Shown piece after piece: positions 31,900 through 47,065 of a DNA stretch of 47,069 nucleotides. Every line of letters begins with the position of its first letter. The first letter of the stretch is position 1. The position numbers and the translations under genes are program-made. The notes beneath the pieces were generated by a model that ran no database searches, had not been told where the DNA came from, and saw only the letters and a program-made list of their open reading frames with translations. The stretch is from Candidatus Bipolaricaulota bacterium (lineage in GTDB: Bacteria; Bipolaricaulota; Bipolaricaulia; UBA7950; UBA9294). Location: the NCBI GenBank assembly GCA_041302745.1, contig JBFYQP010000037.1, positions 1-47,069 of the forward strand, in the 5' to 3' direction.

Positions 31900-32961
31900 T
31901 CAACTGTGCGAATGTCGGTGGTGCGCGTCCGGGGTGTGCGGGTGAGAGTGCTCGGACGGCGCGTGCGCGTGAGCATGCGAGTGCCTGTACGCGGCCCCCG
32001 CTCGCTCCGCCGCGTGCGAATGGGCGTGGTGCTCGTCGTGCACGTGAGCGTGCGTGTGAACGATCGGCTCGTGGGTGTGTCGGTGCGCGTGCCGTTCCCG
32101 CAGAAGAAGCACGAGGGCGAGGACCATCAGTGCGGCTCCCCCGTAGAACGACACGCGCGGCGCCTCGGGGAACAGGGCGAACGAGAGAATGGCGCCGGCG
32201 AACGGCGCGGCCGCGAAGACGGCGCCGGTCCTCGCCGTCCCTAGATTTCGCAGCGAGCGGACGAAGAGGGCGATGCTTGCCCCGTAGCATGCGGCGCCGA
32301 CCGCCAAGGCTGCGAGGGCGACGCCGTACGGCGGCAGCGGGCGGCCCAGGCCGACGGCGAGCCCGAGCGAGAAACTGCTGGCGACCAGCCCCTTGACGGT
32401 CGTGATCAATTTGGGGTCCCGGAGCGAGATCTGACGAGTGAGGTTGTTGTCGAGCCCCCAGAAGACGCAGGCGCCGAGAATGAGCAGAGCCCCCGGCGCG
32501 AAGCCCCAGCCTGCCGACGGATCGACGGAGAGGAGAGCGCCGCCGGCCGAGACGGCGGCCACGGCGGCCCACGTCCTGCCTCCGACCGCCTCGCGGAAGA
32601 GAGCGCCGGCGATCAGGGCCGTCGCGACGACCTCGAAGTTGAGAAGAAGGGATGCGGACGCCGCCTGCGTCGTCGTCAAGCCCAGGAGGAGGAGGATCGG
32701 TCCGGCCACTCCGCCCGCGACGACGGCGCCGGCAAGCCATGGAAGGTCCTGCCGTTCAAGCCCCGCCTCTCGATGCGTTGAAGCCCGGCCATTCGACGAC
32801 GGAGTGAGAGCACGCCACGCCAAAGCGAGGATTCCGAGGAAAGCGCCCGCGCCGAGGTAGAGGAGTCCCGCGAGGGCGATCGGGTCGACCTTCGCGAGGA
32901 GAACCTTGGAGAGCGGAGCGGAAATGCCGAACAGAAGGGCCGAGACGATTGCGTAGGCCAT
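31900..32961 (-). CDS. DMT/EamA-family permease with a histidine-rich C-terminal tail
   Basis: Two EamA-like halves (about 10 TM segments; FGISAPLSK, LGTARTGAVFAAAPFAG). The last 63 residues contain 23 His in HxH patterns. GAGGAGG SD, 19 nt after the stop of the XDH-family gene. Confidence 0.75.
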   Translation of the reverse strand: MAYAIVSALLFGISAPLSKVLLAKVDPIALAGLLYLGAGAFLGILALAWRALTPSSNGRASTHREAGLERQDLPWLAGAVVAGGVAGPILLLLGLTTTQAASASLLLNFEVVATALIAGALFREAVGGRTWAAVAAVSAGGALLSVDPSAGWGFAPGALLILGACVFWGLDNNLTRQISLRDPKLITTVKGLVASSFSLGLAVGLGRPLPPYGVALAALAVGAACYGASIALFVRSLRNLGTARTGAVFAAAPFAGAILSFALFPEAPRVSFYGGAALMVLALVLLLRERHAHRHTHEPIVHTHAHVHDEHHAHSHAAERAGAAYRHSHAHAHAPSEHSHPHTPDAHHRHSHS

Positions 32962-32980
32962 CCCTGGCCCCTCCTCGGGG

Positions 32981-35248
32981 CTAGACCGGCGCCCTCAGCA
33001 ACTCCCGCACGTACGGCGGGTCGAGCGGGTAGCGGCTTGGGTCGCGCCCGATCGCATGGGCGACCGCGCGGGCGACGGCGGCGTGCGCCGCCATGAGAGG
33101 CACCTCGCCGATCCCCTTCATGCCGAACGGCCCGGCGGGAAACGCCGCCTCGACGAAGTCGACGCGGACGTCGAGCGGGACGTCGCGAATCGTCGGCATC
33201 CGGTACGTCGTCAGGCCGTTCACGACAAGGCGGCCGTCCTTCTGCGGAATGGACTCCGACAACGCGAACCCGAGACCCTGGGCGATTCCGCCCTCGACCT
33301 GTCCCGCGGCCAGCGCCCGATTGAGGATCGTGCCGGAGTCGTGGGCCGCCGCGAAATCGACGACGTGAGCCTCCCCCGTGGCGAGGTCGACCTCGACCTC
33401 GGCGACGTGTGTCGCGAACGCGTAGACCGGGTAGGCGTCACCGAGTCCGGTCTCGGGATCCCAGCTCACGGGCTCCGTCTTCGCCCACCCCTCGACGGCG
33501 GGGTCGACGTTGCGCACCCAGAAGGCCCGCGCGATGTCGCTCCAGCGTTCGGCAACCGCGGCGTCGGGGATTCCGAGCTGGCGCGCGACGGCTGCGACTC
33601 GCTCGCGAAGCTTGCGCGCCGCGTCGAGCACCGCGAGCGCGGCCATCATCGTCCCGCGCGACGCCACGGTCGGCCCGCCGTCCGGGACGCGAGACGTGTC
33701 GACCGGCGCGAGGTGGACGCGCTCCATCGGCACGCCGAGGGCCTCGGCCGCGACCTGAAGGACCGCCGTGGAGAGGCCCTGCCCCATCTCGACCGTTCCT
33801 ACGGCCACCGTGACCGAGCCGTCGGCCTCGAGTTTCATGGCAGCACCGGCCTTGTCGAGGGACGGCGCCTTGCCGCCCAATCCCACGCCGTAGAGAACGC
33901 AGGAGACTCCCAGGCCGCGGCGGCGATCCGTGTGTGTCCGGTTGAACGCCTCGACGCGGGAGAGCCGCGCCGCCCAGTCGGCAAGCTCCGCGGCACGGTC
34001 GAGCGTCTCTGCGATCCCCACGCTCGCTTCGACACGGTGATCGGTCGAGGTTCGGTCGCCGGGGCGCAGGACGTTGCGCCGTCGAACGTCGATGCGATCG
34101 AGTCCGAGGCGCTCCGCGATCCGATCCATCTGCGACTCGTGGGGGAAGATGACCTGGGGGCTCCCGAACCCGCGAAACGCCCCGTTGGGCACGGTGTTCG
34201 TCGCCACAGAACGCGCGACGACGTGCACGTTCGGAATCCGGTACGGTCCCGCGGCGGTCACCAGGCTTCGCCACAGGACGGCGGAGGATAGGGTTTGGTA
34301 GGCGCCGGCGTTGAGCACAACGTCGACGTCGATGGCCGTGATGGTGCCGTCGGCCTTCGCCCCCGTCCGGTAGCGCACACGGGCCGGATGCCGCTTGCTC
34401 GTCGTGAGCACGTCCTCTCCGCGTTCCAGGACGAGCTTCGCCGGTCGGCGCGTCGTCCACGCCACGAGGGCGGCGAGAGACGCGATCAGCGATGGGACGT
34501 CCTCCTTGCCTCCGAATGCCCCTCCCGTGGCTGTTTGGATCACGCGAACCTTGGCGAGCGGAAGGCCGAGGACCTTGGCGACCGCGCCCTGCACGTAGAA
34601 CGGGCACTGCATCGACGCGTAGACCGCGATCGATCCGGCTTCGTCGGGAACGGCGATCGCCCCCTGGGGCTCGAGGTAGGCGTGCTCCTGGTAGCCGGTC
34701 TCGTACTCCCCTTCGACGACGACATCCGCCTGCGTGAACCCCTCGTCGACGTTGCCCTTCGCGAGGACCATCCGATTGAAGACGTTGCCTCCGCCCTCGG
34801 CGGCCGCCGCCACGCAGACAATGGGTGCATCGGGCTCGACGGCCCGCCTCGTGTCGGTGACCGCGGGGAGCGGCTCGTACTCGACGCGCACCTCGAGCGC
34901 CGCCTTTCGGGCGGCGCGACGCGACGTCGCCCCAACCAGGGCCACCGGTTCGCCGATGTAGCGAACGACGCCGTCCGCGAGCGCAGGTTGATCGTCATAG
35001 ATCACGTGCACGGCGTTCGCGCCGGGGACGTCCCGTTGGGTCACGACGCAGTCGACGTCCGGATCGCCAAGCGCTTTGGAAGCGTCGATCGAGAGGACCT
35101 TGGCGTGCGGGTGGGGGCTGCGAACGACGGCGACGTGGAGCATGCCGGGGAAGGCGAGGTCGTCGACGTACCTCGCCTCACCCCGAACCTTGTCGACCGC
35201 GTCCGGTCGAGGAACGCTCGCGCCGATCAGCGTCGTTCGCTTCTCCAT
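32981..35248 (-). CDS. Xanthine dehydrogenase/aldehyde oxidase-family molybdopterin-binding subunit
   Basis: From M48 of the track ORF: MEKRTTLIGASVPRPDAVDKVRGEARYVDDL (a/b-hammerhead start), large Mo-binding domains, and a C-terminal KGIGEVPL catalytic-Glu motif. About 755 aa with no fused [2Fe-2S] or FAD domain. Confidence 0.85.
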   Translation of the reverse strand: MEKRTTLIGASVPRPDAVDKVRGEARYVDDLAFPGMLHVAVVRSPHPHAKVLSIDASKALGDPDVDCVVTQRDVPGANAVHVIYDDQPALADGVVRYIGEPVALVGATSRRAARKAALEVRVEYEPLPAVTDTRRAVEPDAPIVCVAAAAEGGGNVFNRMVLAKGNVDEGFTQADVVVEGEYETGYQEHAYLEPQGAIAVPDEAGSIAVYASMQCPFYVQGAVAKVLGLPLAKVRVIQTATGGAFGGKEDVPSLIASLAALVAWTTRRPAKLVLERGEDVLTTSKRHPARVRYRTGAKADGTITAIDVDVVLNAGAYQTLSSAVLWRSLVTAAGPYRIPNVHVVARSVATNTVPNGAFRGFGSPQVIFPHESQMDRIAERLGLDRIDVRRRNVLRPGDRTSTDHRVEASVGIAETLDRAAELADWAARLSRVEAFNRTHTDRRRGLGVSCVLYGVGLGGKAPSLDKAGAAMKLEADGSVTVAVGTVEMGQGLSTAVLQVAAEALGVPMERVHLAPVDTSRVPDGGPTVASRGTMMAALAVLDAARKLRERVAAVARQLGIPDAAVAERWSDIARAFWVRNVDPAVEGWAKTEPVSWDPETGLGDAYPVYAFATHVAEVEVDLATGEAHVVDFAAAHDSGTILNRALAAGQVEGGIAQGLGFALSESIPQKDGRLVVNGLTTYRMPTIRDVPLDVRVDFVEAAFPAGPFGMKGIGEVPLMAAHAAVARAVAHAIGRDPSRYPLDPPYVRELLRAPV

Positions 35249-35250: not shown

Positions 35251-36276
35251 CTAGAGACGACCTCCCATCGTCAGGGTGAGGATCGCCTTCTGCGTGTGCA
35301 GACGGTTCTCCGCCTGGTCGAGGATCCACGACAGCTTGTTGTCGCACACCTCGGCGTCCGCCTCGTTGCCGCGGTCGACGGGCATGCACTGGAGGAGGTA
35401 CCCGGGGTCGCCAAGTCTCTTCTGGCGCTCCGTCGAGTACTTCCAGTTCACGTACTTCTTTGCGATCTCGGCTTCCTTCTCCTTGCCGATCTCGTAGCGG
35501 TCTTTCGTGAACCAGTTGCGCGGGAAGACGACGGTCGCCCCGTCCAGTGCCTTGTCAAGATCGTGCGAGATCTCGAACGACCCGCCCGACGCCGACGCGA
35601 GGTCGCGACAGTCTTGCATGACCTTCGGGTCGAGGTCGTACTCGGGCGGGTTGGCGACGACGACATTCATGCCGTACAGGGACGAGATGAGCGCCGTTCC
35701 CTGCACCGAGCACCAGCCGCGGATCCACGGCGACCAGGCCCACATGATGACGATCTTCTTTCGTTTCACGTCGCCGTCGAGCTTCTCGTGCATCGTGTAG
35801 ATGTCGGTCAGCGACTGGCAGGGGTGGTTGATGTCCGAGGCCATGTTGATGATCGGCACGCGGCAGTGCTTGGCGAACTTCTGCATCACCTCGTCCGCCT
35901 CGCCGTAGTGGCGGATCTTGTCATCGAGGAGGCGAATGCCCACGCCGTCGCAATACCGCTCCATCGCCTCGGCGGTGTCCTTCACCGTCTCCCCGGCGCC
36001 CGGCTTGTCCTCGAGCGACAAGCGCGTCGTCTGCGGGTCGATGAACTGCGCGTGCCCGCCGAGCTGCGTCATCGCCGTCTCGAACGACATGCGCGTTCGC
36101 GTCGAGCCGGCGAAGAACATCATCGCGAACGTCTTGTACTCGAGCGTCGGGTGAGGAATGCGGCTGTAGTACGCGCCCTTCAGCTGGTCGGTGACCTTCA
36201 TCGCGATGTCGTATTCCTCGCGAGTCCAGTCGAGCTCGCTGATGAGGTCCCGTCCCGCGAGATCAAACCAACTCAT
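35251..36276 (-). CDS. YgeW-like carbamoyltransferase, divergent paralogue (QCMP instead of HCLP)
   Basis: Carbamoyl-phosphate motifs GSTRTRMSFETAMTQLGG and NHPCQSL. WAWSP...FPRNW is YgeW-like. There is no SMG ornithine loop. GAAGGAGG SD. Confidence 0.8.
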   Translation of the reverse strand: MSWFDLAGRDLISELDWTREEYDIAMKVTDQLKGAYYSRIPHPTLEYKTFAMMFFAGSTRTRMSFETAMTQLGGHAQFIDPQTTRLSLEDKPGAGETVKDTAEAMERYCDGVGIRLLDDKIRHYGEADEVMQKFAKHCRVPIINMASDINHPCQSLTDIYTMHEKLDGDVKRKKIVIMWAWSPWIRGWCSVQGTALISSLYGMNVVVANPPEYDLDPKVMQDCRDLASASGGSFEISHDLDKALDGATVVFPRNWFTKDRYEIGKEKEAEIAKKYVNWKYSTERQKRLGDPGYLLQCMPVDRGNEADAEVCDNKLSWILDQAENRLHTQKAILTLTMGGRL

Positions 36277-36393
36277 GAAACCTCCTTCGCAACGGCACGA
36301 GCCGCAGAGAGCGCAGGGGATTGGGGAGATCGCTCACGAACCGTGGACTCCATCTCGGCGTCCTCTGCGTCCTCTGCGGTGTGCTTCCCCGTT

Positions 36394-37431
36394 CTAGCCC
36401 ATGATGCAGGCCATCATCCCTTTCTGGCCGTGGAGGCGGTTCGCCGCCTGTTCGATGATCACGGAGTTCGGGCCGTCGATGACGTCGTCGGTGACCTCCA
36501 TGTCACGATCCGCGGGCAAGCAGTGCATGTAGATCGCGTTGTTCGTCAGCTTCATCTTCTCCGACGTCGTGATCCAATGCTTGTTCGCCTCGAAGACGGC
36601 CTTCGCCTTCTCCGCGTCCATCGGCGTCTTGCCGTCGGTCGCCTGGACCGTCCACGCCTTCGGGTACACGACGTCGGCGCCCTTGAAGGCTTGGTCCATG
36701 TCGTTCACGACCTTGAACGCCCCGCCGTGCCGCTTCGCGAGGTCCTTCGACGCCTGGAGCACCTTCGGGTCGAGGTCGAGGCCCTTCGGGTGCGCGAGGG
36801 TGACGTCCATGCCCATCGTCGACGCGGCGATGATGCAGCTCTGCGGCACCGCGAGCGGCTTCTCGACCGAGCCGGAGTACGCCCAGCTCATGACGAACTT
36901 CTTGCCCTGCAGGTTGTGGCCGAGCTTCTCCTGCATCGTCATGACGTCGGCCAGGTCCTGGCACGGGTGGTACATGTCGTCTTCCATGTTGATGACCGGG
37001 ACCTTGGACCACTCGGCGAACTCGCGGACGATCCGGTTCCCCTTTCCGTAGATCCAGTCGGTGTACTTGCCGTAGATGCGGATCGCGATGGCGTCGCCCA
37101 TCTCGGCCAGCACGCGGGCGACATCGCTGATGCGCTCCGTCGAGTAGGCCTTCTCATCGCCCTTGAGGGCCGGGGTGTACACGGCGCCGGGCTGCAGGAA
37201 GTGGGCGTGGCCGCCGAGCTGCGTCATGGCGGTCTCGAACGAGTTCCGCGTTCGCAGCGACGTGTTGTAGAACATCATGTGAAGCGTCTGCCCGTCGAGC
37301 ACCTTGTGGGGCTCGCGGCGGATGAACTTGCGCTTCAGGTCGTGCGCGGTGTCGAGCATGGCGTCGATCTCGTCGCGCGAAAACTCCAACCAGGTGATGA
37401 AATCTCGTCCTCGTAGCGTGGTGTTCGACAT
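36394..37431 (-). CDS. YgeW-type carbamoyltransferase (substrate unknown)
   Basis: TSLRTRNSFETAMTQLGG, YHPCQDL, MSWAYSGSVEKPLAVPQS...MDVTLAHPKGLDLDP, DVVYPKAWT and YMHCLPAD closely parallel E. coli YgeW as I recall its sequence. Confidence 0.85.
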   Translation of the reverse strand: MSNTTLRGRDFITWLEFSRDEIDAMLDTAHDLKRKFIRREPHKVLDGQTLHMMFYNTSLRTRNSFETAMTQLGGHAHFLQPGAVYTPALKGDEKAYSTERISDVARVLAEMGDAIAIRIYGKYTDWIYGKGNRIVREFAEWSKVPVINMEDDMYHPCQDLADVMTMQEKLGHNLQGKKFVMSWAYSGSVEKPLAVPQSCIIAASTMGMDVTLAHPKGLDLDPKVLQASKDLAKRHGGAFKVVNDMDQAFKGADVVYPKAWTVQATDGKTPMDAEKAKAVFEANKHWITTSEKMKLTNNAIYMHCLPADRDMEVTDDVIDGPNSVIIEQAANRLHGQKGMMACIMG

Positions 37432-37446
37432 GGTCTCTCCTTGGAT

Positions 37447-38403
37447 CTACTCCCTCGTGATCGTGGTTCCCGCTTTGCCTTCCAGCGCGTCCGTCGCCTT
37501 GTCGAGCGACGTGATGATCGCCTTCTCGCCGCCCGACTCGATGAACCGGATGGCGGCGCGCACCTTGGGCTCCATCGAGCCCTTGGCGAAATGCCCTTCG
37601 GCGGCGTACTTCTTTGCCTCGGCCACCGTCATTCGGGCGAGGCTCGTCTCCTGCGGCGTCTTGTAGTGCAGCTTCACCTGGGCGACGTCGGTCAGGATCA
37701 TGAAGATCGAGGCCTTCACGTCGGCGGCGAGCCGCTCGCCGGCGAGGTCTTTGTCGATGACGGCGTCAACGCCCTTCAGCCCTCCGTTCTCGCGCAAGAC
37801 GGGGATCCCGCCGCCGCCGGAGGCGATGACGATCGTGCGGGCGTCGACGAGCTGGCGGATGGCCTCCTTCTCGAAGATCTCGACAGGGTCCGGGGACGCG
37901 ACGACGCGGCGCCACCCGCGGCCGGCGTCCTCTTTCACGTCGTAGCCCTTCTCCTTCTTCAGGCGGGCGGCCTCGTCTGCGCTGTAGAACGGGCCGACCG
38001 GCTTCGTCGGGTTGGCGAACGCGGGATCGGCCTTGTCGACGACGACCTGCGTGACGATCGTCGCGACCGGGATCGAGCCCTTTCCCTTCGCCGCGAGGAG
38101 GTTGATCAGGTTCTGCTGAATCATGTAGCCGATCAGCCCCTGGCTCTCCGCGCCACAGACGTAGAGAGGCATCGGTGCGGCGACCTCCTTGCCCACTTCG
38201 TTCTGGAGCAGGATGTTGCCGACCTGCGGGCCGTTCCCGTGGGTCACGACGATCTTGTACTTGCCCGAGTCCACCATGTGAGCGAGCTGCTCGCACGTGA
38301 TGTGGACGTTCTTCATTTGTTCTTCGAACGTTCCGCGCTGCCCCGGCTGAAGAATGGCGTTTCCGCCCAGGGCAACGACGACCAGCTTCTTCTCGACTTG
38401 CAT
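37447..38403 (-). CDS. arcC: Carbamate kinase
   Basis: KLVVVALGGNAILQPGQ, VVTHGNGPQVG and later carbamate-kinase blocks. 318 aa. Its stop lies 15 nt upstream of the carbamoyltransferase start. Confidence 0.9.
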   Translation of the reverse strand: MQVEKKLVVVALGGNAILQPGQRGTFEEQMKNVHITCEQLAHMVDSGKYKIVVTHGNGPQVGNILLQNEVGKEVAAPMPLYVCGAESQGLIGYMIQQNLINLLAAKGKGSIPVATIVTQVVVDKADPAFANPTKPVGPFYSADEAARLKKEKGYDVKEDAGRGWRRVVASPDPVEIFEKEAIRQLVDARTIVIASGGGGIPVLRENGGLKGVDAVIDKDLAGERLAADVKASIFMILTDVAQVKLHYKTPQETSLARMTVAEAKKYAAEGHFAKGSMEPKVRAAIRFIESGGEKAIITSLDKATDALEGKAGTTITRE

Positions 38404-38455: not shown

Positions 38456-39163
38456 CTACGCCTCCCAGATCTCCCGCATCCGCGTCCAATGCTCGACCAT
38501 CTTCGTGAACGCCGCGTCCTCGTCCTGGTCCTCGACAGCGTCGAGGATCTCCCGGTGCAGGTCGACGACGTGCTGCAGATCGCTCACGTTCTTCAAGTAG
38601 TAGTGCCGTGTGAACTCCCGGTAGACCCTCTGATCCATCGTGTCGATCAGCGGGACGAGGGCGGACCCCACGAGAGGGTTCCCCGCCGCGTCGGCCAGGG
38701 CGCGATGGAACGCCTTGTCGGCCGCGAAGTACGCGTCGAAGTCGTTCTCTCCGGCCCGGACACGCATCGTTTCGAGAATCTCGCGGAGCTGCTCGATCGC
38801 GGCCTCGTCCGACTTCTCGGCGGCCATCGCCGCCACGGGCGGCTCGAGGGCTTCGCGAGCCTCCATCACCTCGAGACAGCCGGCCTCGCTCTCAATCAGG
38901 TGGAGCGTGTTCGACTCGTCCGTTGTCGACGGCGCCCGCAGCACGTAGTTCCCGCTTCCGGGACGCGACTCGATGATCGCCATCGCTTGGAGAGCCGACA
39001 GCGCCTCGCGGATGGACGGTCGGCTCACGCCCATCTGCTCGGCCAGCTCAAACTCCGACGGAAGGCGGCTCCCCACGGGGAAATCGCCTCGGTGGATCGC
39101 GTCAACGATCTGCTCGGCGGCGATCGCCGAGACCTTCCGCGACTGCACCCTACTGAACCGCAT
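38456..39163 (-). CDS. GntR-family transcriptional regulator, FadR/FCD subfamily
   Basis: wHTH LPSEFELAEQMGVSRPSIREALSALQAMAIIESRPGSGNYV, followed by an all-helical FCD-like C-domain. The ATG at 39163 is preceded by AAGGAG; the track's GTG 39181 is less likely. Confidence 0.85.
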   Translation of the reverse strand: MRFSRVQSRKVSAIAAEQIVDAIHRGDFPVGSRLPSEFELAEQMGVSRPSIREALSALQAMAIIESRPGSGNYVLRAPSTTDESNTLHLIESEAGCLEVMEAREALEPPVAAMAAEKSDEAAIEQLREILETMRVRAGENDFDAYFAADKAFHRALADAAGNPLVGSALVPLIDTMDQRVYREFTRHYYLKNVSDLQHVVDLHREILDAVEDQDEDAAFTKMVEHWTRMREIWEA

Positions 39164-39274
39164 TGCCGTCTCCTTCTTCACTCGATCTTGTGTCGTTCCC
39201 TTCGATGATACCCCCGCTCGCGCGGGCAGACCCAGCCGGTGCGGCGCAGGGCCCTTGGGCGTAGGCCATTCGCC

Positions 39275-40384
39275 TCATGGGCGAGCCTCCTTCACGGGGA
39301 CGAGGCCTCCTCCCCTCTGCAGGAGGAGGGCCGCCGCGGGGCAGGACGAGGCACAGAGTCCGCATCCGCGGCAGTCCGCTTCGACGATCGTCTCTGCGCT
39401 TCGCCGTGCCCCGTACGGGCAGACGCGGACGCAGACTCCGCACTGCGTGCAGGCCGTGCGGCTCCAGGCGAATGTCCAACCCTCTCGAACCTGCGTTCCG
39501 TTCGAAGCGGCGACAAGTGCCGGGAGGCCCGCCCCCGTCGCTTCGCCCGGGCTCTGGAACCCCAGCGAGGCAAGGCGCGCCGACACGTCCCGAAGGAGGT
39601 CGCCGAAGACCGACACGCCGTGCAGCACGGGCGCCGTGCAGACTCCGACGGCGGTCGCCCCCGCGTAGAGCATCTCGAGGACATCGTCGGCGGTTTCGAC
39701 GCCCCCCGTCCCGATGATGGGGCATCCCGTTTCGCGCGCGATGTCGGCAACGACGCGGAGAGCGATGGGAAGGATCGGCCGTCCCGAGAGCCACCCGTAT
39801 CCTCCGAGCCGCGGGCGGCGCGAGGCGAGGTCGAAGCGCAGTGCCGGCCCGACGGAGTCAATGGCTGTGATGGCCGATGCGCCGTTCGCGAGGCACGCGC
39901 GGGCGGTCTCGACGACGCCCGGCGCGTTGGCGCTCACCTTCGCGAACACCGGCACGGAGGCGCGCCTCACCGCCTCCTCGACCATGCCGGGCACGGCCGA
40001 ACCGTCGTACGAGACGACCTCGAGCGCGCAGGCTCCTGCTTCGGCCAACGCGCCGGCGAGCGCGCGCACATCCTCGCGCGTCAGCCCCACGCTCGCGATC
40101 ACCACGGTCCCCGCCTGGCGGGCGCGCGGGATCTCCCGCTCGATCCACCGTTCGGGGGAGAGGTCGGACCAGCGTTCGGCGTTCAGGAGCCCGCCGCTCG
40201 ACCGCGCGATGTGCGGCACCGGGTTCACGGCCGCGCGCACGCCGATGGTCTTCGTGACGACGGCGCCGGCGCCGGCGCGGGTGGCGCGCGCGAGCGCGTC
40301 CCCGTCAAACGAGAGCGGGCCCGAGGCGAGCACGAAGGGCGTTCGGAGCTTCAGGCCGCACAGGTTCGTCGCAAGGTCGATCAT
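39275..40384 (-). CDS. PreA-like (DHODH/dihydropyrimidine dehydrogenase-fold) FMN protein with a C-terminal 2x[4Fe-4S] ferredoxin domain
   Basis: MIDLATNLCGLKLRTPFVLASGP, FAKVSAN and IIGTGGVETADDVLEMLYAGATAVGVCTA (FMN barrel). CTQCGVCVRVCP and CRGCGLCASSCP clusters. ATGA overlap with the upstream gene. Confidence 0.75.
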   Translation of the reverse strand: MIDLATNLCGLKLRTPFVLASGPLSFDGDALARATRAGAGAVVTKTIGVRAAVNPVPHIARSSGGLLNAERWSDLSPERWIEREIPRARQAGTVVIASVGLTREDVRALAGALAEAGACALEVVSYDGSAVPGMVEEAVRRASVPVFAKVSANAPGVVETARACLANGASAITAIDSVGPALRFDLASRRPRLGGYGWLSGRPILPIALRVVADIARETGCPIIGTGGVETADDVLEMLYAGATAVGVCTAPVLHGVSVFGDLLRDVSARLASLGFQSPGEATGAGLPALVAASNGTQVREGWTFAWSRTACTQCGVCVRVCPYGARRSAETIVEADCRGCGLCASSCPAAALLLQRGGGLVPVKEARP

Positions 40385-41700
40385 CGGCCCCCCTTCGTCC
40401 ACAGGCGGCGTGCCTGGGCGTGGGCCTCGCGGCGCGCGGCCTCAAGGTCGACGGCCAGGAGTTCGCCGTCCCTGAAGAGCACCCGTCCGTCGACGACCGT
40501 GAGAGCGACATCCGCCCCGGACCGGAACAGAACGAGCTGTTCGGCGACGTTCTCGGCCGTGAGGGGCGTGTCGAGGTCGAGGCGTACGCCGACCACGTCG
40601 GCGCGTCGCCCCGGCGCTAGGAGGCCCGCGTTGACGCCGACGGCGTCGGCGCCCCACGCCGTGGCCATGGCGAGCACCGTCCGTGCCGGCATGACTCGCG
40701 CGTCGCGTCGCACTCCCTTGTGGATGAGGAAGGCGGTGCGCATGACCTCGAACGGGTCGTTGATGTACCCGTCGGTGCCGAGGCCGGGGCGCATCCCGGC
40801 CTCGAGCATCTCGGGGATCGGGGCGACGCCTCCGCCGACCTCGCAGTTGCTCGCCGGCATGTGGGCGAGGCGCACCCGCCGCTTCGCCAGCACCGCGATC
40901 TCGTCTTCGTCGAGCGAGACGCCCTGCGAGGCGAGCACCGAGCTGTCCCAGAACCCCAGGCGGTCGTACCAGATCGCAGGCCGCACTCCGTATCGCTCGA
41001 GGGTGAACGACGGCTCGTAGTCGCTCTCGGAGAGATGAAGGTGGATGCGGACGCCCGACTCGACGGCGAGGGCCTTTCCTTCCCGCACGAACGCCTCCGA
41101 GCACGAGAACGACGTGTGCAGGCTCATCATCCCGGTCACGCGCCCCGTTCCGTGCGCGGCGGCGAATCCGGCGTTCTCGAACAGCGCCGCCCGCGCCGCG
41201 GCCTCGCCGTGGCGCTCGGACGCCTCGAGCGAAAGCACGGCGCGGATGCCCGTCTCCTCGGCGACGCGGGCCTCGACGTCGAGAACGCCGGACGCCGCGC
41301 GCGGCGCCTCGAGGACGTCGCACACGGTCGTGATGCCGAAGCGGATCATCCTCGCGCAGGCGAGGCGGAAGGCCGCCTCGACCATCGCGGCGTCGAGACG
41401 ATCTTCGACGCGCGGCCACCAGAACTCGGCGAGGAACGGGTAGAACCCGGCCGGCGGCTCCGCAAGGGGGATGCCGTGCGCCAGGATGCCGTAGGAGTGC
41501 ATGTGCGCGTTGACGAATCCCGGCATCAGGAGGAGGTCGCGCGCGTCGATCGTCTCGATCCCCGGCCGCGTTGCGGCGAGGGTCTCGTTGGGGCCGACGT
41601 CCGCGATCGCGCCGTCGACGATCCGCACGCCCCACCCCGTTTGCAGTAGAGCGTCGGCCGCCGTCAGCAGGGCTCCGCCGAGAAGGATCCGCTCAGTCAT
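40381..41700 (-). CDS. SsnA-like metal-dependent amidohydrolase (chlorohydrolase/deaminase superfamily)
   Basis: LLMPGFVNAHMHSYGILAHGI...FLAEFWWPRVEDRLD parallels E. coli SsnA (PGIVCSHNHFYSGLSRGI...LWWRLDRALD) as I recall it. HxH, later His residues and Asp (GTDGY) are present. Confidence 0.75.
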   Translation of the reverse strand: MTERILLGGALLTAADALLQTGWGVRIVDGAIADVGPNETLAATRPGIETIDARDLLLMPGFVNAHMHSYGILAHGIPLAEPPAGFYPFLAEFWWPRVEDRLDAAMVEAAFRLACARMIRFGITTVCDVLEAPRAASGVLDVEARVAEETGIRAVLSLEASERHGEAAARAALFENAGFAAAHGTGRVTGMMSLHTSFSCSEAFVREGKALAVESGVRIHLHLSESDYEPSFTLERYGVRPAIWYDRLGFWDSSVLASQGVSLDEDEIAVLAKRRVRLAHMPASNCEVGGGVAPIPEMLEAGMRPGLGTDGYINDPFEVMRTAFLIHKGVRRDARVMPARTVLAMATAWGADAVGVNAGLLAPGRRADVVGVRLDLDTPLTAENVAEQLVLFRSGADVALTVVDGRVLFRDGELLAVDLEAARREAHAQARRLWTKGGR

Positions 41701-43603
41701 GGCGCAGCGCCTCCAGCCGAGCGGCGACGTCGGGGAGCTCGAGGCGAAGGAGCGTGTCAGGCGTCGGCCAGCCGCGCTCGGCGTCCCACCCGCGGAGCGC
41801 GTAGTACTCGTCGAGCATCTCCTCGGCGTGGGCGATCTCGCCGCGCGCGCCCATCGACGGCGACGGCTCTTCTTTGAAGCGGCGCGGGAGCCGATCGTCG
41901 GCGCGCGTGATTCCGTGCACGGCGTTGTAGGCGCGCATCAGGTTGTAGATCCGCTCGCCGGTTTTCCGCAGGGCGTCGGGCGTCGTCTCGACCCCGGTCG
42001 CGTAGGTCAGGCCTTCCGCAAGGTCGGGCCAGTAGACCTCGGCCATCACGAACGTTCCGCCGGACTTGCAGACGCCGACGGAGTCAACGACGGCGCCGTA
42101 GTCCTCCCCATCCTTCACCAGGAACGGCTTGTGTTTGGTCGCGTGGGGGTCCGCCATCTCCGGCAGGAACGCGGCGCCGTAGCGTCGAGCGACCTCGTTG
42201 GGGCTCCCGGTCTCGTCGATCGTCGGGAACGCCTTCAGGTGGTCGGCGCCGCGGCTCGACGTGATGTGCGCGAGCCCCATCGACTGCTGGGCGCGGCCGT
42301 CCTGAGCGGGGATCTCGAGTCCCTTGACCTCCATGGCGTACTCCTCGGCGCCCCGGCCGATGCGGTGTGCCGCCTCGCGCACCCCGAGCGACAGGAGGTC
42401 GCCGAAACCCTCGCGGCGCGCAATGCGCTCGATCAGTTCGAGCATGACGTGGTAGTCGCCCCACCGCAGTTCTAGGCCGTCGGTGTCGGCCTTCGTCAGG
42501 AGCCCCTTCTCGAAGAGCTCGAACGCGAACGAGATCGATCGCCCGGCCGAGATGGTGTCCATTCCCAAGCGGTCGCACCGCTCGTTCGCGTGAAGGATGG
42601 ACGGGAGGTTGTCGTTTCCGACCGCGGCGCCGAACGCGTTCAGGGTCTCATACTCGAGACTGGACGTCACCGCTCCGGCAAACTCCCCGGACGTCACGTG
42701 GAAGACCTTGTCGCAGCGGATCGGACAGCCGAAGCACCCTGCGTCCTTCACCCAGTGGTTGCGGCGCAGGGCGTCGCCGGCGATGCGGTCCGCGGCCGCG
42801 AAGTCGCCCGACTGGAAGTTGCGCGTCGGGAACCGCCCGATCTCGTTCACGACGGAGACGAGGCCCGACGTTCCGTGCCGGGAGATCGACGGGTAGAACT
42901 CGTTTCTTCGGATCCGTTCGTGCATCGCCCGCGCGAGCCGGGTGAACTCCGTCGGAGAGGCGATCGGCACGGGACGCGAGCCGCGGACGGCGATCGCCTT
43001 CAGCCGCTTCGCGCCCATCACAGTGCCCACGCCCGTTCGGGCGAGGCTGCGGTTCGGTGAGGCCTGGATGGACGCGTAGCGAACGCCATTCTCCGCCGCG
43101 GGACCGACGCAGGCGACCATGACTCGGTCGTCGGCCTTCGCCCGCCGGATTGCGGCCTCCGTCTCGACCGTATCGAGCCCCCACAGGTCGGCGGCGTCCT
43201 CGAGCTTCGCGCGGCCGTCGTCGATCCAGAGCCACACGGGGCGGCTTGCCTGGCCGGTGAAGACGAGGAAGTCGTAGCCGCTCCGCTTCAGCTCCGGGCC
43301 GAACATACCGCCGCAGTTGGCGTCGCCGTAGATGCCGGTGAGGGGAGACTTTGCGATGGCTTCGAAGCGCCCGGAGGTCGGCCAGGCCGTGCCGCACAGG
43401 GGGCCGGACGCGAGGATCAGATCGCTCTCCGGCGAGAGCGCGTCGACGGCGGGCGGAACCTCGTCCCAAAGAATGCGGACGCCGAACCCGTTTCCCCCGA
43501 GGTAGCGGAGGCGGAGCTCCCGGGGCGTCTCGGCCGCGACGATCTCGCCGTTCGATAGATCGACTCGCAAGGACTGACCTGCGTAACCGCCGGTTCGGCT
43601 CAT
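41693..43603 (-). CDS. Aldehyde:ferredoxin oxidoreductase-family (tungsto/molybdopterin) enzyme, copy B
   Basis: From the internal MSRTGGYAGQSLRVDLSNG: 636 aa. AFOR_N pattern (LGGNGFG...ASGPLCGT), [4Fe-4S] ligands CFGCPIRC plus DSVGVCKSG, and SSRGADH. The 1023-aa track ORF is a run-on into the upstream gene. Confidence 0.85.
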   Translation of the reverse strand: MSRTGGYAGQSLRVDLSNGEIVAAETPRELRLRYLGGNGFGVRILWDEVPPAVDALSPESDLILASGPLCGTAWPTSGRFEAIAKSPLTGIYGDANCGGMFGPELKRSGYDFLVFTGQASRPVWLWIDDGRAKLEDAADLWGLDTVETEAAIRRAKADDRVMVACVGPAAENGVRYASIQASPNRSLARTGVGTVMGAKRLKAIAVRGSRPVPIASPTEFTRLARAMHERIRRNEFYPSISRHGTSGLVSVVNEIGRFPTRNFQSGDFAAADRIAGDALRRNHWVKDAGCFGCPIRCDKVFHVTSGEFAGAVTSSLEYETLNAFGAAVGNDNLPSILHANERCDRLGMDTISAGRSISFAFELFEKGLLTKADTDGLELRWGDYHVMLELIERIARREGFGDLLSLGVREAAHRIGRGAEEYAMEVKGLEIPAQDGRAQQSMGLAHITSSRGADHLKAFPTIDETGSPNEVARRYGAAFLPEMADPHATKHKPFLVKDGEDYGAVVDSVGVCKSGGTFVMAEVYWPDLAEGLTYATGVETTPDALRKTGERIYNLMRAYNAVHGITRADDRLPRRFKEEPSPSMGARGEIAHAEEMLDEYYALRGWDAERGWPTPDTLLRLELPDVAARLEALRHD

Positions 43604-45456
43604 CCTCGCCCTCCGACGTCGGCCAGCCACCGTTCGAGGCCCAGCCCTTGGAGGGTCTCCCGCGTCGGGATCCCGTTCGCGTCCCAGCCGCGCAGCGCGT
43701 AGTAGCGGGCGAGCATCTCGTCGAAGCCTTCGATGACGTGGAGCGTCGTCCGTCCGCCTCGCTCCACGGGCATCGGCTCCTCCGTGAATCGGCTCGGAAG
43801 CCGGTCGTCCTTGGACGACAACCCCAGACGGACATTGAACATCCGTTCGAGGTTGACGATGCGCTCCCCGGCGCGCAGGAGTTCGTCGCCCGTCGTCTCG
43901 ACGCCGAGCGCGCGGGCCCCGCGGGCAAGGTCCTCCGGGTGCAGCGGATGGGTCTCCACCGTGCTGAACTTGCAGACGCCGAGCGAGTCGGCCACGGCGC
44001 AGTAGTGCTCGCTGAAGACAACCAGGTCGGGCTTGTGGCGCTCGTCGCTCGGATCCATGACGTCCGGCAGGACGTGGGCCAGGTGCATGCGAGCGGCCTC
44101 CTCGAGCCCGGCGGTATCGATCGTCGGCAACGCGTAGAGATGGTCGGCGCCGCGGTTCGACGTCGCGTGCCCGAGGCCGAAGCTCTTCGCCACGCGGCCC
44201 TCCTGCGACGGGATCTCGAGGCCTTTGACCTCCATGGCGTACCGGGGGGCGTCGCCGCCCAGGGTCGCCGCGGCCGCACGCACGCCGGAAGCAAGGAGGT
44301 CGCCGATGCCGCTGCGCGAGGAGATCCGCCGGACGACCTCGACGACCGTCTCGGGGTCCCCCCACTCGAGCGACAGGGTCTCGTCGTCGAGCAGCCCGCG
44401 CTCGTGGCACTCCATGGCGAACGCGATCGCGGCCCCGGTCGACAGCGTGTCGAGGCCGAGCTCGTTGCAGAGCATGTTGGCGTAGAGGATGACTTCCGGA
44501 TCGGAGCAGTCGCACTGCGGCCCGAGGGAGTCGACGGTCTCGTACTCCGGCCCCGCCGTCGTGCAGGCGTAGGCCCCGCCGCGAACCGTCGAGATGCGGC
44601 CGCACCGGATCGGACAGCCCAAGCAGCCTTTGACCTCCGACTTGTAGGCCTCGAGGGCCTCGGCGTCGATCCGGTCGATGAACGCGACCTGGCCCCGCTG
44701 GTGGTTCTTTGCGGGCAGGTCGCCGATCTCGTTCTTGATCGCCGTCAAGAACGGCGTGCCCCATCGACTCAGGTTCTGGATGGACGGGGCCGAGAGCAGC
44801 CGCTCGGTTGCCCGCCGCGCCTCGGCGAGGAACGCTCTAGGCGCTCGATCGGGCGGGACCCTGTCGACGACGACGGCCTTCAGGTTCTTCGATCCGAACA
44901 CCGCGCCGCCCCCGGTGCGCGCCGCCGCGCGGCCGCCGTCGTTGATCACGGCGGCGAACCGGACGCCGTTCTCGCCCGCCGGGCCGATGCTCGCCACGGC
45001 GGCGTCTGGGTATCGCTCGTGCAGGGTCGCTTCGGTCTCCCGGGTCGTCTTTCCCCAGAGGTCGCCGGCCGGCCGGACGGCCACCGACCCGCGACCCACG
45101 AGGAGGTGAGTCGGCGTCTCGGCGCGCCCGCGCACGACGATCGCGTCGAAGCCGCACGCCGCGAGGAACGGGCCGAGCTTGCCGCCGGCGTTGGCATACC
45201 CGTAGCACCCCGTCAACGGCGATCGGAACGTGAGGTGGTAGCGCGAGGCGGCCGGCCACGGCGTGCCGGAGAAGAGCCCCGACGTGAGGATGAGGGCGCT
45301 CTCCGGATCGAGGGGGGCGATGCCGGGGGGCGCCAGGTCGTAGATCAGGCTGGCTCCGTATCCGCGCCCGCCGAGGAACTCGTCGAGCCGATCCCTCGGC
45401 GTGTCAACGATCTCGGTCGCGCCGAGAGAAAGGTCCACGTACGCTGTCTTCCGCAT
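43600..45456 (-). CDS. Aldehyde:ferredoxin oxidoreductase-family enzyme, copy A
   Basis: MRKTAYVDLSLGATEIV...LGGRGYG...TSGLFSGT, CLGCPIRC plus DSLGVCKFS, and SNRGADH. 618 aa. ATGA overlap with copy B. Confidence 0.85.
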   Translation of the reverse strand: MRKTAYVDLSLGATEIVDTPRDRLDEFLGGRGYGASLIYDLAPPGIAPLDPESALILTSGLFSGTPWPAASRYHLTFRSPLTGCYGYANAGGKLGPFLAACGFDAIVVRGRAETPTHLLVGRGSVAVRPAGDLWGKTTRETEATLHERYPDAAVASIGPAGENGVRFAAVINDGGRAAARTGGGAVFGSKNLKAVVVDRVPPDRAPRAFLAEARRATERLLSAPSIQNLSRWGTPFLTAIKNEIGDLPAKNHQRGQVAFIDRIDAEALEAYKSEVKGCLGCPIRCGRISTVRGGAYACTTAGPEYETVDSLGPQCDCSDPEVILYANMLCNELGLDTLSTGAAIAFAMECHERGLLDDETLSLEWGDPETVVEVVRRISSRSGIGDLLASGVRAAAATLGGDAPRYAMEVKGLEIPSQEGRVAKSFGLGHATSNRGADHLYALPTIDTAGLEEAARMHLAHVLPDVMDPSDERHKPDLVVFSEHYCAVADSLGVCKFSTVETHPLHPEDLARGARALGVETTGDELLRAGERIVNLERMFNVRLGLSSKDDRLPSRFTEEPMPVERGGRTTLHVIEGFDEMLARYYALRGWDANGIPTRETLQGLGLERWLADVGGRG

Positions 45457-45539
45457 CTTGAGAACTCCGCCCGCGCGCTCGGCCCGGCCTCCGGCGAGCG
45501 TGCGAGGCTCCGGTTCCCCCTCCTGCCCGTCCTGTTTGG

Positions 45540-45587
45540 TGGTCAGCTTGTCAGACTGGATTGTACACAGTCCTTCGTAGGCCGCAA
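45540..45587 (-). promoter_or_regulatory. Promoter (TTGCGG-N16-TACAAT) plus candidate operator for the AOR operon
   Basis: On the minus strand, TTGCGG lies at 45587-45582 and TACAAT at 45565-45560. After 3 nt comes the palindromic heptamer GTCTGAC (45556-45550), with a second CTGACCA at 45546-45540. This is the only AT-richer patch in the 148-nt gap. Confidence 0.45.
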
Positions 45588-45604
45588 CGCCGAGGCCTTG
45601 CCGG

Positions 45605-46984
45605 CTACCGGCTCTTCGAGGCCTCCCGATTCCCTCCGGTGCGGACAGGACGTCCTCGCCCGGGAGCCGCCACGATTCGCCCCTTCTCCGAGACGACCTC
45701 GCCCCTCGACAGGGTGGCGGTCACGCGGCCGACGATCGGTCGCCCTTCGTAGGGAGAGAAGTCGGTGTGGGAGTGGAGGTCCGCGGCGGCGACCTTCGAC
45801 GTGCTGTCTGGGTCGTATAGGACGACGTCGGCGTCGGACCCGACGTCGAGGGCGCCCTTGCGTGGGTAGATGCCCAGGCGTTTTGCCGGGCGCTCGCAGA
45901 GGATGCGAGCGAGGTCGGTCAGGTGGAGGCGCCCCGTGGCGGCGCCCTCCGTGTAGAGGAGCGGGAGCAGGGTCTCGACGCCCGGGAGTCCGTACGGAAG
46001 ATCGAGGAACGAGCCGTGCCACGTCTTCTGCTCGCGGGTGAACGGGCAGTGGTCCGTGGCGACGTAGTCGATGTCCTGGCTGCGGAGGCCGGCCCAAAGC
46101 GCCTCCCGATCGCCGTCCGTGCGCAGCGGCGGCGCCGCCGAGAAGAGGCGCCCGTCGTCGCGGTCGTAGACGGCGCTCGTCAGGAGAAGGTACTGCGGGC
46201 AGGTTTCCGCGCTGATGGAAGCCCCGTCGGATCGTGCCGTGCGGACCGCGTCGAGGCCGATGTGCGAGCTGACGTGCACGATGTGCAGCGGGCAGCCGGC
46301 TCTGCGCGCGGCTCCCGCGACCTGCGAGATCGCGACCTGCTCTGCGAGGTCGGGGCGCGCCGCGGCCAGCGTTCGCATGCGGCCGCGATCCTCGTCCGTC
46401 AGGCGCGCGGCGATCGATTGGATCAGCCCGTCGTCCTCGGCGTGGACGACCGCCAGGGCGCCCAGCCGAGCCAGCTCGCGGAACGCCGCGGCCATCTCCC
46501 GCGGACCCGTCCGGCGCCCCGACGCGGCGTACGTCGTGTAAAACTTGAAGCTCGAGATCCCGAGATCCACCGCGTCGCGGAACTCGCCCTCCCGCCCCGC
46601 GTGCCACCCGACCACCTCTCCGTGCAGGGCATAGTCGACGACCGAAGGGGCCGCGTCCGCGAGGCGTTCTTCGATCCCTTGCGGGATCGTTCGCCCGGGG
46701 GCGCCGACCGTGAAGTCGACGATCGTCGTGACCCCGCCGCACGCCGCGGCTTGGCTTCCGGAGAGGAAGTCGTCGCTCGAGCGGGTTCCGGCGACAGGCA
46801 GCGCCATGTGGACGTGGGCGTCGATCACGCCCGGGAAGACGAGGAGCCCCGAGGCGTCGAGCTCGCGCCGGCCTCGGAGCCCGGGACCGACGGCGGCGAC
46901 GCGCTCTCCGTCGACGGCGACGTCGGCCGACTCGACGGCAAGCGGGCTGACCAGGGTTCCGTTGCGGATGACGAGATCGTACAT
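45605..46984 (-). CDS. D-hydantoinase/dihydropyrimidinase (cyclic amidohydrolase)
   Basis: MYDLVIRNGTLV...GVIDAHVHM, SSFKFY (carboxylated-Lys position), VVHAEDD, LHIVHVSS and VATDHCPF: the full DHPase metal-ligand set. GAGGAG SD. 459 aa. Confidence 0.85.
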   Translation of the reverse strand: MYDLVIRNGTLVSPLAVESADVAVDGERVAAVGPGLRGRRELDASGLLVFPGVIDAHVHMALPVAGTRSSDDFLSGSQAAACGGVTTIVDFTVGAPGRTIPQGIEERLADAAPSVVDYALHGEVVGWHAGREGEFRDAVDLGISSFKFYTTYAASGRRTGPREMAAAFRELARLGALAVVHAEDDGLIQSIAARLTDEDRGRMRTLAAARPDLAEQVAISQVAGAARRAGCPLHIVHVSSHIGLDAVRTARSDGASISAETCPQYLLLTSAVYDRDDGRLFSAAPPLRTDGDREALWAGLRSQDIDYVATDHCPFTREQKTWHGSFLDLPYGLPGVETLLPLLYTEGAATGRLHLTDLARILCERPAKRLGIYPRKGALDVGSDADVVLYDPDSTSKVAAADLHSHTDFSPYEGRPIVGRVTATLSRGEVVSEKGRIVAAPGRGRPVRTGGNREASKSR

Positions 46985-47024
46985 GGGCTCCTCTTTTCGC
47001 GGCGGAATGCAGGATCTTGCGAAC

Positions 47025-47065
47025 TGGTCAGACAGCATGATAGCATTGCCCGAACGAGGCCTCAA
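47025..47065 (-). promoter_or_regulatory. Promoter (TTGAGG-N17-TATCAT) plus candidate operator for the hydantoinase gene
   Basis: On the minus strand, TTGAGG lies at 47065-47060 and TATCAT at 47042-47037. After 3 nt comes GTCTGAC (47033-47027), which overlaps CTGACCA (47031-47025). On the plus strand the site reads CTGGTCAGACAG. Confidence 0.45.

Follow-up and report, generated by a model that had tools for sequence, protein, structure and literature searches.

The 47,069-nucleotide stretch of a Candidatus Bipolaricaulota genome analysed here (the window; assembly GCA_041302745.1, contig JBFYQP010000037.1) carries, from position 31900 to its right edge, eleven minus-strand open reading frames (ORFs). 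Among them are genes for two members of the aldehyde ferredoxin oxidoreductase (AOR) family, AOR-A and AOR-B, lying next to relatives of the enzymes that degrade purines anaerobically. AOR-A defines a subfamily, termed A-type, that is tied to a gene pair encoding an SsnA-like amidohydrolase of a separate clade (clade W) and a UacX-like reductase (UacX'). The link between the AORs and the pathway is real, new and strong, and the two AORs are integral to a pathway variant rather than bystanders. What is new here is that operons for anaerobic purine degradation contain an AOR subfamily of their own. Of lesser novelty are the non-SsnA amidohydrolase clade, carbamoyltransferase paralogues distinct from YgeW, a probable replacement of YgeX and an orphan molybdenum (Mo) subunit of the xanthine dehydrogenase (XDH) family. 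The cluster as a whole is a variant of a known pathway and no categorically new module. Judged by analogy, the region is rather likely to be a chromosomal operon set for the anaerobic reductive degradation of purines of the urate/2,8-dioxopurine type.

All eleven ORFs were found where the initial annotation, made from the letters alone, had placed them, in the same order and with the same overlaps and gaps. The families, assigned with Pfam and NCBIfam, are as follows.

31900-32961, minus strand: EamA/DMT-family permease with a His-rich C-terminal tail of ~60 residues, the last gene of the cluster (Pfam EamA 88 bits)
32981-35248, minus strand: XDH-family molybdopterin subunit, 755 aa (Ald_Xan_dh_C and MoCoBD_1/2)
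35251-36276, minus strand: carbamoyltransferase 2 (CT2), OTCace fold (STRTR and HPCQ motifs; QCMPVD replaces HCLP)
36394-37431, minus strand: carbamoyltransferase 1 (CT1), OTCace fold (in a clade sister to true YgeW)
37447-38403, minus strand: carbamate kinase of the YqeA/ArcC type (TIGR00746 436 bits, cutoff 358)
38456-39181, minus strand: GntR-family regulator with an FCD effector domain (domain search)
39275-40384, minus strand: UacX-like reductase with an FMN (DHO_dh) domain and C-terminal 2x[4Fe-4S] (DHO_dh 108 bits and two Fer4 motifs)
40381-41700, minus strand: SsnA-like TRZ/ATZ amidohydrolase of clade W (26% identity to E. coli SsnA)
41693-43603, minus strand: AOR-B, 636 aa (AFOR_N 251 bits, AFOR_C 433 bits)
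43600-45456, minus strand: AOR-A, 618 aa (AFOR_N 227 bits, AFOR_C 407 bits)
45605-46987, minus strand: D-hydantoinase/dihydropyrimidinase, HyuA-like (TIGR02033 395.6 bits, cutoff 393.25)

The AOR-A and AOR-B genes share an ATGA overlap, as do those of the SsnA-like amidohydrolase and the reductase, and AOR-B overlaps the amidohydrolase gene by 8 nt. Further downstream, gaps of 117 nt (CT1/CT2), 2 nt (CT2/XDH) and 19 nt (XDH/DMT permease) separate the genes.

Linkage of A-type AORs to purine genes

A metagenome scan with an alignment of A-type AORs returned A- and B-type as well as generic AORs, the latter serving as a built-in control. The clade-W gene, the UacX' gene or both were present at 20 of 32 A/B-type loci and at none of the 48 generic AOR loci (p=6e-11). 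Where the flanks reached at least 4 kb on both sides, the pair was linked at 10 of 11 A/B-type loci as opposed to 0 of 13 generic ones, kinship between the loci being ignored in both counts. Orthologues of AOR-A (45-67% identity) adjoin clade W and UacX' in every AOR-containing locus, and orthologues of AOR-B are confined to loci with two AORs. An A-type AOR stands beside this pair in at least six lineages, namely Bipolaricaulota, Chloroflexota, a Bacillota metagenome-assembled genome (MAG), Spirochaetales, Thermotogae and Sediminicultor, and the linkage covers several phyla and several gene orders. In other Bipolaricaulota, the block of AOR-A, AOR-B, W, UacX' and hydantoinase recurs with overlapping genes, and the Chloroflexota order is AOR-ferredoxin-AOR-ThiS-W-UacX'. 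Single A-type AORs lie inside the cluster in the Bacillota MAG, Spirochaetales, Thermotogae and Sediminicultor, the last with the order W-UacX-AOR-Hyu-XDH-XdhB-XdhC. At yet another locus (L094), the AOR is flanked by genes for a YgeY-like peptidase and for an XDH with all three subunits. The minimal conserved unit consists of one or two AORs, W and UacX'. The conservation of the neighbourhood, which the initial annotation had proposed as a check, is thus borne out and is specific to the subfamily. Its strict pairing of two AORs, two amidohydrolases and two carbamoyltransferases did not survive the comparison, as relatives have either three carbamoyltransferases together with YgeY or none, and many have a single AOR.

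Could the AORs be general enzymes of aldehyde detoxification or fermentation, placed beside purine genes by chance and without a functional link? One short Methanosarcinaceae contig (L093) has an AOR-ferredoxin-AOR-ThiS unit and no visible purine genes, which would fit this explanation, as would some A-type loci without partner genes, all of which lie on short or cut contigs. The translational coupling of the AOR genes, the adjacency conserved across several phyla in several gene orders and the flank-controlled counts, however, render a chance neighbourhood very improbable. In the searched literature, we found no mention of a link between AORs or tungsten and urate, hydantoinase or the purine metabolism of Bipolaricaulota, in keeping with the earlier statement that none of the characterised pathways combines AORs with these enzymes.

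AOR-A and AOR-B are paralogues with 46% identity. AOR-A shares 83% identity with a protein of a 'Candidatus Bipolaricaulis sp.' MAG, followed by relatives that also come from Bipolaricaulota. Among bona fide AORs, both are nearest to the Pyrococcus furiosus enzyme (PfAOR, 1aor; 390 and 437 bits). True AORs give the highest scores with both proteins, on which ground an identity as a BamB-like ring reductase or as FOR, GAPOR or WOR5 was rejected. Both keep T243, E313 and H448 (PfAOR numbering), the four [4Fe-4S] cysteines and both pterin motifs, and these cofactor and catalytic residues, a list taken from PMC13328260, are also conserved in 44 A-type and 23 B-type relatives. Tyr427 of PfAOR is replaced by Gln in the window AORs and in 44 of 44 A-type and 23 of 23 B-type relatives. 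Generic AORs of the same sample have His, Gln or Tyr at this position, with Gln in 13 of 53, so that the exchange, albeit invariant within the subfamilies, is not diagnostic and was dropped as their marker.

The surroundings of the conserved unit differ between lineages. Other Bipolaricaulota operons combine AOR-A/B, W, UacX' and the hydantoinase with genes for sugar-type ABC transport, an ADP-ribosylglycohydrolase-like protein, a ribokinase (TIGR02152 306 bits, cutoff 300) and a deaminase-like amidohydrolase, and they have no XDH. At L005-L007, L015, L104, L119 and L120, AOR-A, AOR-B, W and UacX' are joined to divergent FTR-like and MCH-like genes as well as to DAGK_cat-like and TRZ/ATZ deaminase-like ones. 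The same loci also hold a GlcD-like flavoprotein with a CCG/Fe-S partner, besides the ADP-ribosylglycohydrolase-like, ribokinase and sugar-type ABC genes. These loci are without XDH, carbamoyltransferase and carbamate kinase and look like a nucleoside-utilisation version of the pathway. As genuine tetrahydromethanopterin (H4MPT) enzymes, the FTR-like and MCH-like proteins score well under cutoff (162 vs 297 and 114 vs 229). Genes for MtmB-like, URO-D-type methyltransferase, pterin-binding and RACo-like proteins adjoin AOR, W and UacX' in Thermotogae, Spirochaetales and Bipolaricaulota (L019:6279-8902; L031:8869-9699; L006:19179-21851). These neighbours may hint at one-carbon (C1) transfer or may be a coincidence.

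Purine-type enzymes and a proposed ATP branch

The initial annotation had regarded the module as undescribed and the chemistry of its E. coli counterpart, the ygeW-ssnA-xdhD cluster, as largely unassigned, but this chemistry was solved in 2025 (PMC12507026; bioRxiv 10.1101/2025.04.24.650524). XdhD reduces urate to 2,8-dioxopurine, which YgfK dearomatises, and the opening of both rings by SsnA and HyuA leads to 2,3-diureidopropionate. One ureido group of this product is phosphorolysed by YgeW, and the resulting carbamoyl phosphate serves YqeA for ATP formation. YgeY strips the other ureido group, and YgeX yields pyruvate and ammonia (PMC12507026; bioRxiv 10.1101/2025.04.24.650524). The two papers give different accounts of the ureido group that YgeW attacks first. 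In Clostridioides difficile, the PreA-like, probably ferredoxin-dependent UacX (PF01180) performs the dearomatisation in place of YgfK (PMC12507026). Because this enzyme set, including ATP formation via carbamoyl phosphate, has been published, the non-AOR part of the window cluster is a variant of a described pathway, and its earlier likening to the E. coli neighbourhood as an anaerobic N-heterocycle module of purine type holds.

A purine substrate of the urate/2,8-dioxopurine type is the best-supported reading, as we infer from the context. Family assignments, operon structure and neighbourhood conservation were observed directly, whereas each reaction is extrapolated from the E. coli and C. 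difficile enzymes. A purine oxidised at C2 and C8 would be brought to the 2,8-dioxopurine level, and the UacX-like FMN/Fe-S enzyme would reduce the ring. The clade-W amidohydrolase would then open the pyrimidine ring and the hydantoinase the hydantoin ring, leading to 2,3-diureidopropionate. CT1, and probably also CT2 in a strain without YgeY, would phosphorolyse the ureido groups to carbamoyl phosphate, from which the carbamate kinase would make ATP, possibly two per purine. Finally, a pyridoxal phosphate (PLP) enzyme encoded past the window edge would release pyruvate and ammonia.

Within the comparison to the purine-pathway enzyme set, only the hydantoinase and the carbamate kinase pass their curated models. 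The ATP branch of carbamoyltransferase and carbamate kinase had been proposed correctly. Identities to the E. coli proteins are 26% for SsnA, 29-32% for XdhD/XdhA, 35% and 28% for YgeW, 38% for HyuA and 49% for YqeA. As the equivalog tests for YgeX, YgeW and SsnA failed, we do not claim membership in these families and relied on context and trees instead.

The SsnA-like protein falls below both SsnA models, TIGR03314 and NF005540 (221 bits vs a cutoff of 455.5; 230 vs 444). For a context test, one genome per GTDB species was scanned with an alignment of SsnA-like proteins, followed by a tblastn presence/absence matrix. The scan separated three amidohydrolase clades: W (the window type), E (the E. 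coli SsnA type) and A (deaminase-like). Members of clade W score at least 300 bits against the window protein and only ~100-150 bits against E. coli SsnA. The clade-W gene adjoins a UacX-like gene in nearly all related loci, and its clusters in Bacillota, Spirochaetes and others also hold XDH with XdhB and XdhC, YgeY, YgeX, hydantoinase and CT1-like genes. One such cluster, from a Dorea MAG (L020), comprises YgeX, W, XDH, XdhB, XdhC, UacX, YgeY and Hyu, and the clade also occurs in cultured Bacillota such as Pseudoflavonifractor gallinarum (L021). Since no locus in the scan had both clade W and the E. coli-type clade, W takes the position of SsnA. Clade W is an SsnA analogue by context and no member by sequence, and the published SsnA-based survey (IPR017700) misses this whole clade in the SsnA position. 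Its partner, the UacX-like reductase, combines the PF01180 domain with Fe-S clusters, as is characteristic of YgfK/UacX, and its pairing with the clade-W gene is conserved; by analogy, it presumably carries out ferredoxin-linked dearomatisation of the ring.

The XDH Mo subunit has all three domains and matches pucD best among NCBIfam models, albeit under the cutoff (554 vs 784 bits), and it is 32.5% identical to E. coli XdhA vs 29% to XdhD. The motifs GGKE, FRGFG and GEVP were recognised by eye. We take GGKE, FRGFG and GE to be purine-binding and catalytic residues of xanthine oxidoreductases. The part of a ring activator that the initial annotation gave to the Mo subunit is hypothetical. At L017, L031, L094, L105 and L121, XdhB and XdhC genes adjoin XDH.

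Neither carbamoyltransferase reaches the YgeW equivalog cutoff (TIGR03316, 500 bits), CT1 scoring 167 bits and CT2 103 bits. In the tree, CT1 falls into a clade sister to true YgeW that is also found in UacX-type purine clusters, and CT2 represents a deeper-branching lineage seen only in the window and in a sister strain (L013). The YgeW and SsnA labels of the initial annotation therefore fail as equivalog assignments, whereas the kinship of CT1 to YgeW and the SsnA position of clade W stand. CT1, CT2 and a third copy in L013 all have SxRTR and HPxQ, and none has the ornithine-binding SMG loop. The HCLPAD motif of YgeW is present in CT1, and CT2 carries QCMPVD in its place. Both are below the cutoffs of the OTCase and ATCase models, and the N-acetylornithine carbamoyltransferase model is passed by CT1 alone (320 bits vs 288). 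The missing SMG loop, the sub-cutoff models and the placement of CT1 beside YgeW rule out ordinary ornithine or aspartate carbamoyltransferases, as had been presumed, and CT1 is, on its sequence, a probable functional equivalent of YgeW. Its adjacency to the carbamate kinase gene is the YgeW/YqeA arrangement, for which ATP formation has been demonstrated.

The sister-strain locus L013, collinear with the window and 92% identical, has 2.2 kb (8112-10346) between the CT1 and CT2 genes, a place taken in the window by 105 nt without a blastn match. This insert encodes a true YgeY hydrolase (NF009555 529 bits, cutoff 321) and the third carbamoyltransferase, which shares the clade of CT1. YgeY is absent from the window. 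In a strain without YgeY, CT2, only 2 nt from the XDH gene, is the obvious candidate for removal of the second ureido group, which would raise the yield to up to two ATP per purine. The occurrence of two or three carbamoyltransferases suggests that ATP may be gained from both ureido groups. The CT2, CT1 and carbamate kinase genes (35251-38403) differ from their neighbours in first-codon-position G+C (0.57-0.61 vs 0.68-0.76). Their third-position G+C is very high (0.87-0.94), and the regional G+C goes down to 0.64. The amino-acid composition of their products is unlike that of other cluster genes, and they could have been acquired from elsewhere.

Contigs of near-identical strains (99.7-99.8% over the overlap) run on past the right edge. 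The next gene past 47069 encodes a 492-aa fold-type-II PLP enzyme (PALP; L002:1188-2666, minus strand) and is divergent from the hydantoinase gene. The protein gives weak matches to cysteine-synthase models only (83 bits), has no real similarity to YgeX and does not reach the YgeX equivalog. Holophagaceae and Ignavibacteriales have homologues (52-58% identity) in YgfK/SsnA-type urate clusters devoid of YgeX, and the protein probably replaces diaminopropionate ammonia-lyase as a non-orthologous enzyme. Beside it lies a gene for a THEP1-like NTPase fused to a PPOX/F420-type pyridoxamine-oxidase-like domain (L002:178-1191, minus strand). The rightward extension proposed in the initial annotation thus revealed no true YgeX but a PLP enzyme whose homologues take the place of YgeX in other urate clusters. 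The reported lack of YgeX, YgeY and YgfK equivalents is accurate for YgeX and YgeY within the window. It does not hold more widely, as UacX is the alternative to YgfK, the PLP enzyme follows past the edge and L013 has YgeY; the absence of YgeX and YgeY is due partly to the window edge and partly to a strain-specific indel.

Some observations weigh against a purine substrate. The SsnA-like protein, CT1, CT2 and XDH score under the equivalog cutoffs at 26-35% identity to E. coli proteins, so that the substrate could be another heterocycle. Genes for the [2Fe-2S] and FAD partners XdhB and XdhC had no match anywhere in the window, leaving the Mo subunit alone. Moreover, the XDH does not have the XdhD E606 loop. 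Most cluster XDHs, including that of Veillonella, are also without this loop, and we dropped it as a marker of urate reductase for this reason. If the substrate were a pyrimidine (uracil, thymine or orotate) or a hydantoin, the PreA-like protein would serve as a dihydropyrimidine dehydrogenase dependent on ferredoxin, with the hydantoinase in the role of dihydropyrimidinase. N-carbamoyl-beta-amino acids would be phosphorolysed by the carbamoyltransferases, and semialdehydes arising after transamination would be oxidised by the AORs. The cluster does contain the PydA-like and PydB-like folds of the reductive pyrimidine (Pyd) pathway, its hydantoinase passes a dihydropyrimidinase model, and the reductase resembles PreA/DHODH. 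However, Pfam and NCBIfam revealed no aminotransferase or beta-ureidopropionase in the cluster, the operon has a purine-type XDH Mo subunit, the sister strain L013 has a true YgeY, and the clade W/UacX' pair clusters with XDH-ABC, YgeX and YgeY elsewhere. We consider such a substrate improbable.

A possible redox role of the AORs

For the AORs, we tentatively favour, by analogy, acid/aldehyde-level redox chemistry at purine C6 with ferredoxin, replacing or supplementing an XdhD/DOPDH-type Mo enzyme. The AORs would interconvert urate, or a ring-opened 5-carboxylate, and 2,8-dioxopurine, or a ring-opened 5-carbaldehyde. C6 would be at the acid level in urate and at the aldehyde level in 2,8-dioxopurine, and the ring-opened carboxylate and carbaldehyde would form an AOR couple. 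A more specific version, in which the A-type AOR (with AOR-B) is a probably tungsten-dependent, ferredoxin-linked enzyme for urate and 2,8-dioxopurine that may catalyse other purine (de)hydroxylations as well, appears somewhat more doubtful.

Several observations led us to prefer the C6 role, besides the redox levels of this carbon. XDH genes are present in 5 of 17 AOR-containing loci vs 9 of 9 clade-W loci without AOR, and the other Bipolaricaulota operons have no XDH. The minimal unit of AOR(s), W and UacX' mirrors the published upper pathway of XdhD, UacX and SsnA. In L017-type loci, the AOR persists although UacX carries a fused NAD(P)H-type module, which argues that the AOR is no mere electron donor. 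The fusion in these Sediminicultor-type operons (L017:2803-5304; also L108 and L121) is an 833-aa protein joining a UacX-like part to a YgfK/GltD-like module. An alanine dehydrogenase gene precedes the amidohydrolase gene in the same operons and fits pyruvate as the end product.

The C6 role has to be weighed against several points. We know of no AOR-family enzyme that acts on purines or lactams, and both window AORs keep the standard aldehyde-oxidising residues T243, E313 and H448. A-type AORs also co-occur with complete three-subunit XDHs (L094, L017, L105, L112 and L121), and genomes with only AORs in the cluster could have XDH genes elsewhere. Furthermore, the co-occurrence statistics carry no phylogenetic correction.

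The alternatives are a redox loop close to that of the initial annotation, some other role of the AORs within the pathway or, as above, a different heterocycle. In the redox loop, the AORs would work in their normal oxidative direction on a ring-derived aldehyde and hand reduced ferredoxin to the UacX-like reductase, making the pathway redox-neutral. Such an aldehyde might be the aminal carbon unmasked by hydrolysis after reduction of the urate C4=C5 bond, or formaldehyde from a reduced formamidine carbon. The full set of aldehyde-oxidising residues of tungsten-containing oxidoreductases (WORs) in both AORs, whose nearest relative is P. furiosus AOR, would suit this loop, as would the ferredoxin-type clusters of the UacX-like enzyme and the 4x[4Fe-4S] ferredoxin between the two Chloroflexota AORs. 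As clade W is distinct from E. coli-type SsnA, a different regiochemistry is also conceivable. The published pathway, however, has no aldehyde intermediate (PMC12507026; bioRxiv 10.1101/2025.04.24.650524). The downstream genes at AOR-containing loci (YgeY, the YgeW-like carbamoyltransferase, the PLP enzyme or YgeX, and the alanine dehydrogenase of L017) point to a diaminopropionate-to-pyruvate ending, and the AOR is retained where UacX owns an NAD(P)H-type module. We therefore regard the redox loop as unlikely and continue to favour redox chemistry at C6.

A physiological role has been defined for only 5 of 92 clades of tungsten-containing oxidoreductases (2026 survey, PMC13328260). One WOR clade can now be tied to a concrete, biochemically tractable pathway with published assays, whose substrates can be purchased or made enzymatically. 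Should the AORs act on intermediates derived from purines, they would provide a Mo/Se-independent entry into anaerobic purine degradation, used by the environmentally widespread Bipolaricaulota, Chloroflexota, Spirochaetota and Thermotogota. If they act at C6, anaerobic cleavage of the purine ring would have a route without XDH or selenium, and an AOR-family enzyme would for the first time have a physiological substrate derived from a heterocycle.

Genomic surroundings and comparison with known systems

The window has an overall G+C of ~68%, and positions 1-31800 carry housekeeping genes, including FtsH, Dxr, MurJ, FolP-like, PolA, GcvP/H, DnaB, RpsB/Tsf/PyrH, RecG, Fmt and IspD. The genes for the glycine-cleavage P-protein (two subunits) and H-protein at 12645-15812, ~16 kb off the cluster, are probably housekeeping genes as well and would be relevant solely if the pathway ended in glycine. 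The non-coding features of the cluster are the following.

31861-31887, no strand assigned: GC-rich hairpin (stem of 11 bp) between the DMT permease gene and a convergent plus-strand gene; T-rich tail on the plus strand only
36289-36393, no strand assigned: CT1/CT2 spacer of 105 nt, the indel mark relative to L013 (blastn)
45560-45587, minus strand: possible promoter of the AOR-A operon, TTGCGG-16 nt-TACAAT (by eye; sub-threshold in the scanner)
47037-47065, minus strand: sigma-70-like site TTGAGG-17-TATCAT upstream of the hydantoinase gene, within the stretch that separates it from the divergent PLP-enzyme gene past the window

The hairpin exists as initially described, but its assignment as the terminator of the operon is doubtful. 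On the operon strand it is followed by ATGATCGTCG, with no T-run, and the T-rich tail faces the convergent plus-strand gene, so that it serves that gene at least as well as the AOR operon. Two promoters had been proposed, and the sigma-70 scan passed only the hydantoinase site (47065-47037), the AOR-A site remaining a sub-threshold candidate seen by eye. An Rfam riboswitch scan (purine, Moco/Wco) of the window and L002 gave no match. The tail of the DMT permease consists mostly of His in HxHxH repeats, which suggests metal binding, and EamA genes are likewise found in or near the AOR operons of L093 and L008/L009.

Among known systems, the E. coli cluster resembles the window in having an XDH-family Mo enzyme, a ring reductase, SsnA-type and hydantoinase-type ring opening, and ATP formation by a carbamoyltransferase and a kinase. 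It differs in that the window has a UacX-like protein instead of YgfK, no YgfM, no YgeX (another PLP enzyme adjoining) and no YgeY, its proteins being 26-49% identical and mostly under equivalog cutoffs. Moreover, the window has two carbamoyltransferases and two AORs, whereas E. coli is without AORs. A DHODH/DPD-like 'Dehydrogenase X1' was described in a cluster with hyuA, ygeW, ygeY, ssnA, xdhABC and yqeA (Barba et al., 2013; PMC4016543), and that account of the X1 neighbourhood makes no mention of AOR-family genes. The C. difficile-type UacX/UacY variant (PMC12507026) shares with the window a ferredoxin-type PreA-like reductase in place of YgfK and an XDH without the FAD subunit. There, the ureido group is removed hydrolytically by UacY, with no YgeW or carbamate kinase, whereas the window keeps the phosphorolytic ATP route, adds AORs and uses an amidohydrolase of the separate clade W.

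The arginine deiminase pathway likewise conserves energy by substrate-level phosphorylation via carbamoyl phosphate. The window carbamoyltransferases differ from its enzyme by the lack of the ornithine-binding SMG loop, by the placement of CT1 beside YgeW and of CT2 on a deeper branch, and by their purine context. The AORs of P. furiosus (1aor) and bacteria (8c0z, 9mqx and 9g7j) are the best structural-sequence matches of the window AORs, with conserved catalytic and cofactor residues. Unlike them, AOR-A and AOR-B belong to a distinct subfamily with Gln at position 427 that resides in purine-degradation operons.

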